Part shown: in pieces, positions 11,322-11,715 of the stretch
How positions within the stretch are numbered: the stretch's first letter is position 1
How the letters are laid out: each line of letters begins with the position of its first letter
Source: a virus
Taxonomy: Duplodnaviria > Heunggongvirae > Uroviricota > Caudoviricetes
Length of the DNA: 11,814 bases
Reading direction: 5' to 3' (one strand)
IMG/VR virus record: IMGVR_UViG_2579778952_000005
Coordinates: 1 to 11,814 of that record
Translations under genes and position numbers: made by a program
The notes under the pieces: model-generated
The model's input: only the letters and a program-made list of their open reading frames with translations
The model's database searches: none
Told to the model about the DNA's origin: nothing

Positions 11322-11504
11322 TCAGTTCTGCAGACACTGCCGAACACCGTCGACAATTTCACAGACCTGAGACGCGGTATCGAAAAGCTGGCGCGCCTTA
11401 TCCAGGCTGACGCACCCCACCAATAAAAAAGGCACCAGTATCGCTACCAGTGCCCGTTTCACCGCCGTTCGCGGCATTCTGTGTGTCCAGTGTTTTCGCG
11501 CCAT
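11322..11504 (-). CDS. Small putative lipoprotein (60-aa precursor)
   Basis: N-terminus has basic residues, a hydrophobic core ALVAILVPFLLVG and a lipobox-like LVGC. A second in-frame ATG (MPRTAVKR...) would give a typical 22-aa lipoprotein signal. The mature part CVSLDKARQLFDTASQVCEIVDGVRQCLQN has two further Cys and no Pro-rich stretch. Confidence 0.5.
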   Translation of the reverse strand: MARKHWTHRMPRTAVKRALVAILVPFLLVGCVSLDKARQLFDTASQVCEIVDGVRQCLQN

Positions 11505-11505
11505 A

Positions 11506-11619
11506 TCACCACCAACGCACAGCCCAAATCAGAACAGCGACCGCCACAAGGCGAATTGCAAAGGCCGCAGCCCTTGTCAAATCAAGGCTCGCGGGAGTTT
11601 CCATTTCAATACCTTTCAT
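11506..11619 (-). CDS. Small hydrophobic peptide (37 aa), possible single-pass membrane protein
   Basis: MKGIEMETPASLDLTRAAAFAIRLVAVAVLIWAVRWW. Its TGA stop is 1 nt before the lipoprotein ATG (TGA-T-ATG), and GAGG lies about 13 nt upstream of its ATG. Too short to call from composition alone. Confidence 0.3.
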   Translation of the reverse strand: MKGIEMETPASLDLTRAAAFAIRLVAVAVLIWAVRWW

Positions 11620-11715
11620 AATGGACAACCTCAAAAAGAATCTTTTATACTTTCCCACGAGGATTTTCTCCCTACTCACTAATCACAATTTCCCCTTTGA
11701 CGTGAAAACTAAAAA

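Follow-up and report, generated by a model that had tools for sequence, protein, structure and literature searches.

Two small genes behind an endolysin gene

The virus record IMGVR_UViG_2579778952_000005 of IMG/VR (Caudoviricetes) was analysed over its positions 1 to 11,814, a stretch of 11,814 nucleotides (nt) hereafter called the window, which carries on its minus strand, behind the end of an endolysin gene, a gene for a small membrane peptide followed by a gene for a lipoprotein precursor of 60 amino acids (aa) (Table 1). The features which a preliminary description of this DNA had placed here, namely the end of the endolysin gene, a terminator, the peptide, the junction between the two open reading frames (ORFs) and the 60-aa lipoprotein, were all recovered at the same minus-strand coordinates. 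The pair also lies, as had been proposed, in the spanin slot, i.e. after the endolysin gene, where in other genomes the spanin genes Rz/Rz1 sit behind the same peptide. The lipoprotein emerges as a widespread, uncharacterised derivative of an outer-membrane spanin subunit (o-spanin) which occupies the spanin slot without an inner-membrane partner (i-spanin), and the peptide as an independent small membrane protein.

Table 1. Coordinates of the lysis-cassette features within the window
Feature	Position	Strand	Remarks
M15-family endolysin gene, 3' end	11814..11752	minus	translation ends ...IEWGGDWKTLKDGPHFQLKR and stop; gene continues past the window end
Intrinsic-terminator hairpin and T-run (t1)	11749..11710	minus	CCCCGGCTGG...CAGTCCGGGG; between endolysin gene and peptide ORF
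Small inner-membrane peptide ORF	11658..11506	minus	PHROG 4493; most likely 50 aa from GTG 11658
Alternative peptide starts	ATG 11619; GTG 11679	minus	37 aa (PGAP call); 57 aa
Shine-Dalgarno sequence of lipoprotein ATG	11513..11505	minus	GGTGGTGAT; overlaps last codons and stop of peptide ORF
Lipoprotein ORF	11504..11322	minus	PHROG 7528; 60 aa
Lipoprotein signal peptide, residues 1-30	11504..11415	minus	basic n-region MARKHWTHRMPRTAVKR, h-region ALVAILVPFLL, lipobox L-V-G-C
Terminator-like hairpin (t2)	11455..11419	minus	GGGCACTGGTA-GCGA-TACTGGTGCC then TTTTTTATT; inside lipoprotein coding sequence
Mature lipoprotein and stop codon	11414..11322	minus	CVSLDKARQLFDTASQVCEIVDGVRQCLQN; 30 aa

The lipoprotein and its family

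The lipoprotein matches phrog_7528 over 60/60 positions (E 1.5e-35). Its lipobox LVGC ends in Cys31 (codon 11414..11412), and the residue at +2, which is V, A, T or G across the family, is Val in the window copy; the presence of Val and not Asp at this position implies sorting to the outer membrane. An outer-membrane lipoprotein signal and a location in a lysis cassette, as in o-spanins, are both present. The mature part is proline-free and contains two further cysteines, Cys48 and Cys57, and at 30 aa it is indeed as different from mature Rz1 as the preliminary description had it.

Initiation at ATG 11504, giving 60 aa, is considered more likely than initiation at the 51-aa start used by the Prokaryotic Genome Annotation Pipeline (PGAP) and by the spanin census of Kongari et al. 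2018 (PMC6139136), owing to a strong Shine-Dalgarno sequence and a conserved N-terminus. The peptide and lipoprotein ORFs meet at TGG TGG TGA T ATG, and GGTGGTGAT, 5' of this ATG, agrees with the extended Shine-Dalgarno sequence at 8/9 positions, while the 51-aa start has no such sequence. The 15 nt before the ATG are kept in a Citrobacter locus (L007) that lacks the peptide, the N-terminus MxRKHWTHR is conserved, and in other loci the gene before the lipoprotein ends in a stop codon overlapping the ATG of the 60-aa product.

A word-indexed search retrieved 136 lipoprotein clusters, which without exception come from Enterobacteriaceae and have identities of 70% or more, and a HMMER profile search of 1.84 billion representatives retrieved 24 clusters at E < 1e-3, a few of which are fusions or unrelated proteins. 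Members are 44-71 aa long, and a long mature domain was never seen in the HMMER search. Across an alignment of 26 sequences reaching down to 35% identity, M1, L27, G30, C31, C48 and C57 are invariant, so that periplasmic cysteines such as those of spanins are present, with their bonding a prediction. Two AlphaFold2 (AF2) runs gave one long helix at low confidence (pLDDT 64-68), and the census predicts 83% helix for the copy in phage phiP27 (Kongari et al. 2018, PMC6139136). The mature part is amphipathic, with a hydrophobic moment (muH) of 0.42 in the window copy and 0.35-0.5 in the family, and its net charge is -1 in the window copy and -1 to +3 across the family.

Selection was assessed by Nei-Gojobori counts on divergent copies. 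In the mature lipoprotein the ratio of nonsynonymous to synonymous differences (pN/pS) is 0.27 in its own frame versus 1.0-1.9 in shifted frames, with a ratio of nonsynonymous to synonymous divergence (dN/dS) of ~0.1-0.3 at dS up to 1.3 or higher. The transmembrane (TM) core of the peptide has a pN/pS of 0.18 in its own frame versus 1.6-1.8 in the other sense frames, at pairwise dS of ~1.0-1.5 and dN of 0.08-0.19. Purifying selection confined to the reading frame indicates that both the peptide and the lipoprotein are made and constrained. Both ORFs are also conserved in related prophages, one of the checks the preliminary description had called for.

The lipoprotein gene occurs in 352 of 5426 complete Escherichia coli genomes (6.5%), in up to seven copies each which are always annotated as hypothetical, and its carriers include E. 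coli strain W and the Shiga-toxin (Stx) phages phiP27 and phiSTEC1575-Stx2k. Frameshifted or truncated copies were found in three places (L018, L022 and phage GER2). Searches of Pfam (at E <= 1), NCBIfam and PADLOC with the lipoprotein and the peptide returned no match, and a role as a defence system was rejected on the empty PADLOC result. A profile search of the PDB with the lipoprotein gave matches at chance level only (E 0.3-0.4). Mimicry of Lpp was considered for the heptad register, which is alike by eye, and dropped when BLASTP to Braun's lipoprotein was empty.

Alternation with Rz/Rz1 in the spanin slot

In every locus examined the lipoprotein gene comes after the endolysin gene as the last gene of the lysis cassette, and about half of the loci have a short gene, the peptide ORF or a different one, in between. 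The sources comprise Escherichia, Salmonella, Citrobacter, Lelliottia and metagenomic phages, and the accompanying endolysin is of M15 or GH108 type, in combination with any of three holin types and on a lambdoid, P27-like or Mu-like background. The order is holin8, holin3_7, M15 endolysin, a 15-nt gap and lipoprotein in the Citrobacter locus L007; holin, GH108 endolysin and an overlapping lipoprotein gene in Lelliottia (L009); and GH108 endolysin, an Ant-like gene and lipoprotein in Salmonella (L006). In metagenomic lambdoid contigs (L031/32) it is Q, holin_3_1, M15 endolysin, a 4-nt gap and lipoprotein, and in Mu-like contigs (L033/34) Mor, GemA, holins, GH108 endolysin, lipoprotein joined through an ATGA overlap, and Portal_Mu. 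This tight succession, in which the lipoprotein gene of relatives overlaps the endolysin gene by ATGA or follows it after 4-17 nt, speaks against the earlier suggestion of an independently transcribed moron, as do scans which detected neither a minus-strand promoter nor a terminator after the gene.

Among 80 IMG/VR loci retrieved through the lipoprotein, the upstream endolysin gene is of M15 type in 66 and of GH108 type in 11. The peptide is present in 41 and absent in 37, of which 27 have the lipoprotein ATG 17 nt past the M15 gene, and it is absent from all distant members of the family. No lambda- or SfII-type Rz was found within 5 kb in any of the loci (0/80), no ORF with an N-terminal TM helix and a sizeable periplasmic tail was found near the lipoprotein in five diverse loci, and neither an Rz homolog nor a generic i-spanin candidate was found in the complete genomes of phiP27 and phiSTEC1575-Stx2k; the search for Rz comprised two reference families and a generic TM scan.

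A scan with a degenerate DNA pattern covering the end of the peptide and the junction yielded 120 IMG/VR contigs, in which the next gene is a lambda-type Rz (78 contigs) or the lipoprotein (35 contigs), and never both. A GH24 signal-arrest-release (SAR) lysozyme gene precedes the peptide in 69/69 peptide-Rz contigs with upstream sequence; an M15 or GH108 gene lies upstream in the 35 peptide-lipoprotein contigs. Lipoprotein and Rz/Rz1 are alternative occupants of one slot, and no other finding argues as strongly for the lipoprotein serving the same lysis step.

Phage GER2 is the sole phage found to carry both Rz/Rz1 and lipoprotein sequence: it has the peptide with Rz/Rz1 and, ~1 kb downstream, a decayed lipoprotein copy with no intact ORF (L021 3988-4181), which fits redundancy of the two.

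The upstream membrane peptide

The peptide matches phrog_4493 end to end over residues 1-50 (E 3e-24), and its product is most likely 50 aa long, judging from the Shine-Dalgarno motif AGGGAG 9 nt upstream of GTG 11658 and from conservation of the start position: a GTG or ATG is kept at the equivalent site in phiSTEC1575-Stx2k, GER2, Yersinia prophages and two further loci (L022/L023). The residues upstream of the ATG also stay in frame across an indel in homologs. The ORF and its single TM helix had thus been recognised correctly before, at a length of 37 aa which now appears too short. The TATAAA at 11649-11644, previously regarded as a possible -10 element, turns out to be conserved K-Y-K codons of the 50-aa ORF; a suitable -35 is lacking, and a promoter scan did not pick the site up.

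A basic N-terminus (KYKRFFLRLSIMKG) is followed by an acidic linker and a single TM helix with an RWW end, whose hydrophobic core AAAFAIRLVAVAVLIWAVR has a Kyte-Doolittle value over 19 residues (KD19) of 2.05. The peptide is probably an N-in, single-TM bitopic inner-membrane protein with RWW at the periplasmic face. It ends 3 residues past the TM helix, leaving no periplasmic domain, and the initial conclusion that it cannot be an i-spanin holds. A full-length i-spanin form of this ORF was looked for among its homologs and none was seen; a longer homolog of any kind was met with only as frameshift read-throughs. The idea of a truncated i-spanin was rejected on the ground that homologs precede a full-length Rz bearing its own TM domain.

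Peptides with the same TM core stand one nucleotide before a complete Rz (PF03245) with embedded Rz1 in Yersinia prophages, phage GER2, phage PhiR5_1 and E. coli O157:H7, and the KYK-type and MSA-type variants of the peptide N-terminus are each found with both downstream genes, lipoprotein and Rz. Of 5426 E. coli genomes, 867 (16%) carry the peptide ORF, O157:H7 among them. The collection index has 4369 blocks with an identical 37-aa product; ten of these occurrences were inspected, and the lipoprotein, in one locus as a frameshifted remnant, came next in all of them. The next gene, be it lipoprotein or Rz, has a ribosome-binding site that overlaps the peptide stop codon, and translation of the two is probably coupled. 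The notion of a tightly coupled pair forming one module could not be upheld, given that the peptide is missing from 37 of the 80 lipoprotein loci and precedes Rz/Rz1 in 78 of the 120 contigs: it is independent of the lipoprotein and would be an accessory, dispensable protein of the lysis cassette.

The peptide is like Lcc6 of the Shewanella phage LambdaSo in kind, the latter being a single-TM phage protein of 65 aa which works at the holin step, although no homology is apparent. Lcc6, previously of unknown function, proved necessary for LambdaSo lysis (bioRxiv 10.1101/2024.01.23.576932), which indicates that small TM proteins like the peptide can be essential lysis factors.

Several further observations concern the peptide. 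An antisense ORF over it (11450..11767, plus) was discarded, as its pN/pS of 0.30 is expected from shared third positions and its extent is not conserved. A paralogous peptide, phrog_1115 (...AFAIKWVAVGIAVSPILYGLAKLIVALKS), is sometimes found just upstream of the window-type peptide; the two have the N-terminal half and the AFAI motif in common, which suggests recombination within the motif. In some Stx-like prophages (L004 2213-2561; L030 130-657) two or three small single-TM ORFs, phrog_1115 being one of them, precede Rz or the lipoprotein. Natural variants with a 1-nt indel (clusters P0014 and P0125/P0129) encode a peptide-lipoprotein fusion (…VRWWCMTRKHW…) or an alternative-frame read-through, which marks the TGAtATG junction as fragile.

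Relation to spanins and other lysis systems

The N-terminal 34 residues of the lipoprotein resemble the 'Rz1-like LysC' o-spanins of SfII, SfV and Mu (RSHWSHREPRLISKWLL...GC). Alignment with hhalign to SfII/Mu LysC gave a probability of 96.6% (E 6e-10) over residues 2-34 only, with E values of 1e-7 in pairwise BLASTP and 6e-3 in reciprocal tblastn. The mature domain does not align with LysC, the LysC family PF23793 had no match at E <= 1, and LysC proteins were not among the hits of the lipoprotein profile search at E < 1e-3. LysC and the lipoprotein share RxHWxHRxPRxxxKWxL followed by an h-region and a lipobox, and both close a lysis cassette as (in the present case predicted) outer-membrane lipoproteins. 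Mature LysC, however, has ~70 aa with a Pro-rich linker and its gene overlaps the i-spanin gene, whereas the mature lipoprotein is a proline-free, predicted helical segment of 30 aa. The lipoprotein looks as if derived from an o-spanin in which a compact helix with cysteines took the place of linker and interaction domain.

The preliminary description had called the pair unlike known spanins, which is accurate for the mature part of the lipoprotein and fails for its signal-peptide half, homologous to LysC o-spanins, as well as for the family as such, one copy of which had been catalogued as an o-spanin before. Kongari et al. 2018 (PMC6139136) list phiP27 as having a separated two-component spanin. 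Each of its subunits is the only member of its census family, and with a periplasmic total of 62 residues the system is the shortest in a combined range of 62-300 aa. The census o-spanin (51 aa, NC_003356 20706-20861) belongs to the present lipoprotein family, with ~92% identity. The corresponding 'i-spanin' is a 64-aa ORF with a TTG start which is not conserved; it has no PHROG family and runs antisense to a 90-aa ORF matching phrog_36812 (E 5e-20), and for these reasons it is probably spurious, an antisense artefact. The phiP27 copy was therefore on record as a putative o-spanin, and what is new is that the family, a singleton in the census, is widespread and without an i-spanin partner. The annotated phiP27 gene L32 is a wrong reading frame of the lipoprotein gene (L32 and census i-spanin at L003 2440-2595 and 2158-2352, i.e. 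NC_003356 20630-20785 and 20348-20542).

Neither the peptide nor any other ORF looked at in five diverse loci and two complete phage genomes encodes a type II membrane protein with a substantial, usually coiled-coil, periplasmic domain, as an i-spanin would have, and a combined length of ~30 + 3 residues falls short of the census minimum of 62 for bridging the membranes. The lambda Rz/Rz1 genes occupy the same slot after the same small peptide and TGAnATG junction, and both systems have periplasmic cysteines, but lambda has an i-spanin with an embedded gene, whereas the lipoprotein locus has neither and its product cannot span the periplasm. Like the unimolecular spanin (u-spanin) T1 gp11, the lipoprotein is the product of a single lysis-cassette gene with an N-terminal lipoprotein signal; T1 gp11, though, combines a long periplasmic domain with a C-terminal TM domain, while the lipoprotein has neither, showing no hydrophobic segment between Cys31 and its end at residue 60.

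The lysis lipoproteins of colicins and cloacins, with precursors of ~45-60 aa and mature parts of ~28-30 aa, compromise the envelope alone, and colicin-release lipoproteins activate the host phospholipase PldA. These are analogous to the lipoprotein in size and type without sequence or profile hidden Markov model (HMM) similarity (Pfam Lysis_col gave no match), and they differ from it in lacking the two extra cysteines and in being plasmid-borne with colicin operons. A single small protein, the disruptin gp28 of phage PhiKT, replaces spanins for outer-membrane disruption in a spanin-less phage (bioRxiv 10.1101/515445). The disruptin is a cationic peptide and has no lipoprotein signal, while the present protein is predicted to be lipid-anchored and is near neutral.

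A hairpin inside the lipoprotein gene

Besides t1, a terminator-like hairpin, t2, lies within the lipoprotein gene in the signal-peptide codons for A-L-V-A-I-L-V-P-F-L, with an 11-bp stem, a GCGA loop and a run of six T. It is kept in copies from Escherichia, Salmonella, Citrobacter and Lelliottia. Its stability was reached by only 0.1-0.3% of 5000 synonymous recodings of the same peptide (p ~0.001-0.005), and synonymous divergence in the t2 block is half that of the remaining gene. Speculatively, t2 might act as an intragenic terminator, such that the lipoprotein would be made only by Q-modified polymerase.

Proposed role and alternative explanations

The favoured reading, to which a probability of roughly 55% is assigned on the grounds of sequence and genomic context, is that the lipoprotein, putatively o-spanin-derived, carries out the outer-membrane step of lysis on its own, with the peptide as an accessory inner-membrane protein. 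It would form the third, outer-membrane-directed component of a holin-holin-endolysin-lipoprotein cassette and be expressed late, by read-through from the endolysin gene, its 5' half having presumably come from a LysC-type o-spanin gene. After export through the Sec and Lol pathways and lipidation at Cys31, the protein would be placed in the inner leaflet of the outer membrane, where its 29-residue amphipathic helix would probably oligomerise by disulfides through Cys48 and Cys57. Once the peptidoglycan is degraded, it may disrupt the outer membrane. Bridging or fusion of the membranes would be impossible for a protein that lacks an i-spanin partner and whose length does not extend to the inner membrane, and a local action at the outer membrane is suggested, either by direct perturbation or by activation of a host factor, as in the case of colicin-release lipoproteins with PldA. 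A more specific version is offered tentatively: the family might represent a third outer-membrane route, in which a lone, disulfide-linked, lipid-anchored helix of 30 residues, acting from the inner leaflet of the outer membrane, has repeatedly displaced Rz/Rz1 in lambdoid, P27-like and Mu-like phages of enterobacteria and is gated by the hairpin to antiterminated late transcripts.

Several points weigh against the favoured reading. We know of no precedent among phage outer-membrane disruptors for a lone lipoprotein with a mature part of 30 residues. Its net charge of -1 to +3 is not cationic, which makes a disruptin-like mode unlikely, and no paper naming these proteins or describing an orphan o-spanin was found in the literature. 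Given the breadth of the search for Rz, there may be an unrecognised partner elsewhere in the phage or in the host. The presence of t1 before and t2 within the window copy could mean regulated expression that is low or serves another purpose, and the copy in this defective prophage may have become irrelevant to the release of phage. Positional evidence, finally, does not distinguish an outer-membrane disruptor from a lysis regulator.

It is in the light of this last point that the lipoprotein could instead be a regulator of lysis or another late envelope protein, concerned with timing or with protection or conditioning of the envelope, in phages which are truly spanin-less and rely on other means or on shear. 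The functional evidence being positional only, the existence of spanin-less phages in the census and of extra small lysis factors such as Lcc6, and the terminator-like elements which flank and interrupt the gene, suggesting tight dosage control, are all in keeping with such a role; nevertheless we regard it as unlikely, as the strict exclusivity with Rz/Rz1 at the same junction points to replacement and not to an add-on, the 5' half of the gene appears to descend from an o-spanin gene, and pairing with two unrelated endolysin and three holin classes argues against a specific regulator. Rather improbable, too, is a counterpart of Bor, Cor or Llp, serving lysogenic conversion or superinfection exclusion, which came to lie after the lysis genes by chance, a possibility already raised in the preliminary description. 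Llp is a small outer-membrane lipoprotein with disulfide-capable cysteines, a terminator separates the window copy from the endolysin gene, and the gene is common in prophages of pathogenic E. coli, as the genome counts given above illustrate. Such a protein is at odds with the lack of any match to Bor, Cor and Llp among the Pfam, NCBIfam and PHROG models or in PADLOC, with the late-operon orientation and the frequent overlap with the endolysin stop codon, and with the failure of the promoter scan to find a promoter-like site; moreover, the gene assorts with lysis cassettes over three tail and packaging backgrounds (lambda-like, P27-like and Mu-like), whereas receptor-blockers travel with receptor-binding genes.

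A minimal two-component spanin, with the peptide as i-spanin and the lipoprotein as o-spanin working like Rz/Rz1, is very improbable, even though adjacent and translationally coupled genes for a TM protein and an outer-membrane lipoprotein in a lysis cassette match the operational definition under which phiP27 was listed (Kongari et al. 2018, PMC6139136), and periplasmic cysteines, a near-universal spanin feature, are present. The peptide contributes no periplasmic domain, leaving ~33 aa against the 62 aa of the shortest census system; it is missing from 37/80 lipoprotein loci and all distant family members, it also precedes complete Rz/Rz1 with a TM domain of its own, and the i-spanin which the census assigned to phiP27 is the different, antisense TTG ORF of 64 aa. 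That the ORFs are a functionless leftover of a deleted Rz/Rz1 locus, a signal peptide followed by junk, can hardly be entertained. The likeness to LysC-type Rz1 does stop at the signal-peptide half, the prophage is heavily degraded and some copies are broken; but the mature part is under purifying selection (dN/dS ~0.1-0.3) with its three cysteines invariant across genera down to 35% identity, and intact, inducible phages keep both the length and the position.

Phages without a recognisable spanin make up ~13% of those surveyed (91/677; Kongari et al. 2018, PMC6139136), and for the breach of the outer membrane by such phages the lipoprotein family offers a concrete and very small candidate disruptor in genetically tractable hosts. 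If it works alone, it would be a new minimal outer-membrane disruptor, of relevance to engineered lysis and to toxin release from Stx prophages, and the disruptin is, to our knowledge, the sole characterised alternative to spanins so far; if it does not, the shortest 'spanin' of the census needs reclassifying. The upstream peptide gene, which 16% of E. coli genomes carry, that of O157:H7 among them, is a second lysis-cassette gene of interest.

The source prophage and its other genes

Chromosomes of human E. coli of enterotoxigenic (ETEC) type match the window at 100% identity. In the annotated identical record, the minus-strand order runs from a DNA methyltransferase, tRNAs, TerB and DUF3927 through two holins (PF16931 and PF05449), which lie upstream of the M15 endolysin in the source genome, to the endolysin, hypothetical proteins of 37 aa, 51 aa and 122 aa, Nu1, and finally truncated terminase and tail genes. 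The full endolysin gene of this record (L001) matches PF13539 and the endolysin family phrog_465. The terminator t1 behind it was flagged by a terminator scan, a 60-nt segment folding at -24.1 kcal/mol, and the hairpin is also present in the homologs L022/L023.

The prophage is defective: several genes are partial according to PGAP, and a large deletion fuses the gene for the large terminase subunit to a tail gene. The fused tail-tube/minor-tail-L genes and terminase/tail genes, at 7000-9650 of the window, are annotated as partial, which indicates that large internal deletions removed the head genes. The ORF at 43-318 (minus), at the left end, is presumably an IS1 InsA-like ORF.

Downstream of the antiterminator gene of phiSTEC1575-Stx2k lies a second, unrelated lipoprotein ORF of 138 aa (MKKVLIAAIGFCLVGC...; L155 15774-16190), which is probably a moron. 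In the window, the phrog_1935 gene (ORF 10754..11149, minus) has A7 at ~11135-11141 where relatives have A6, which produces a frameshift just after the ATGATGG start; the gene is rescued in the PGAP annotation by a non-canonical start, and the frameshift is a further sign of prophage decay.

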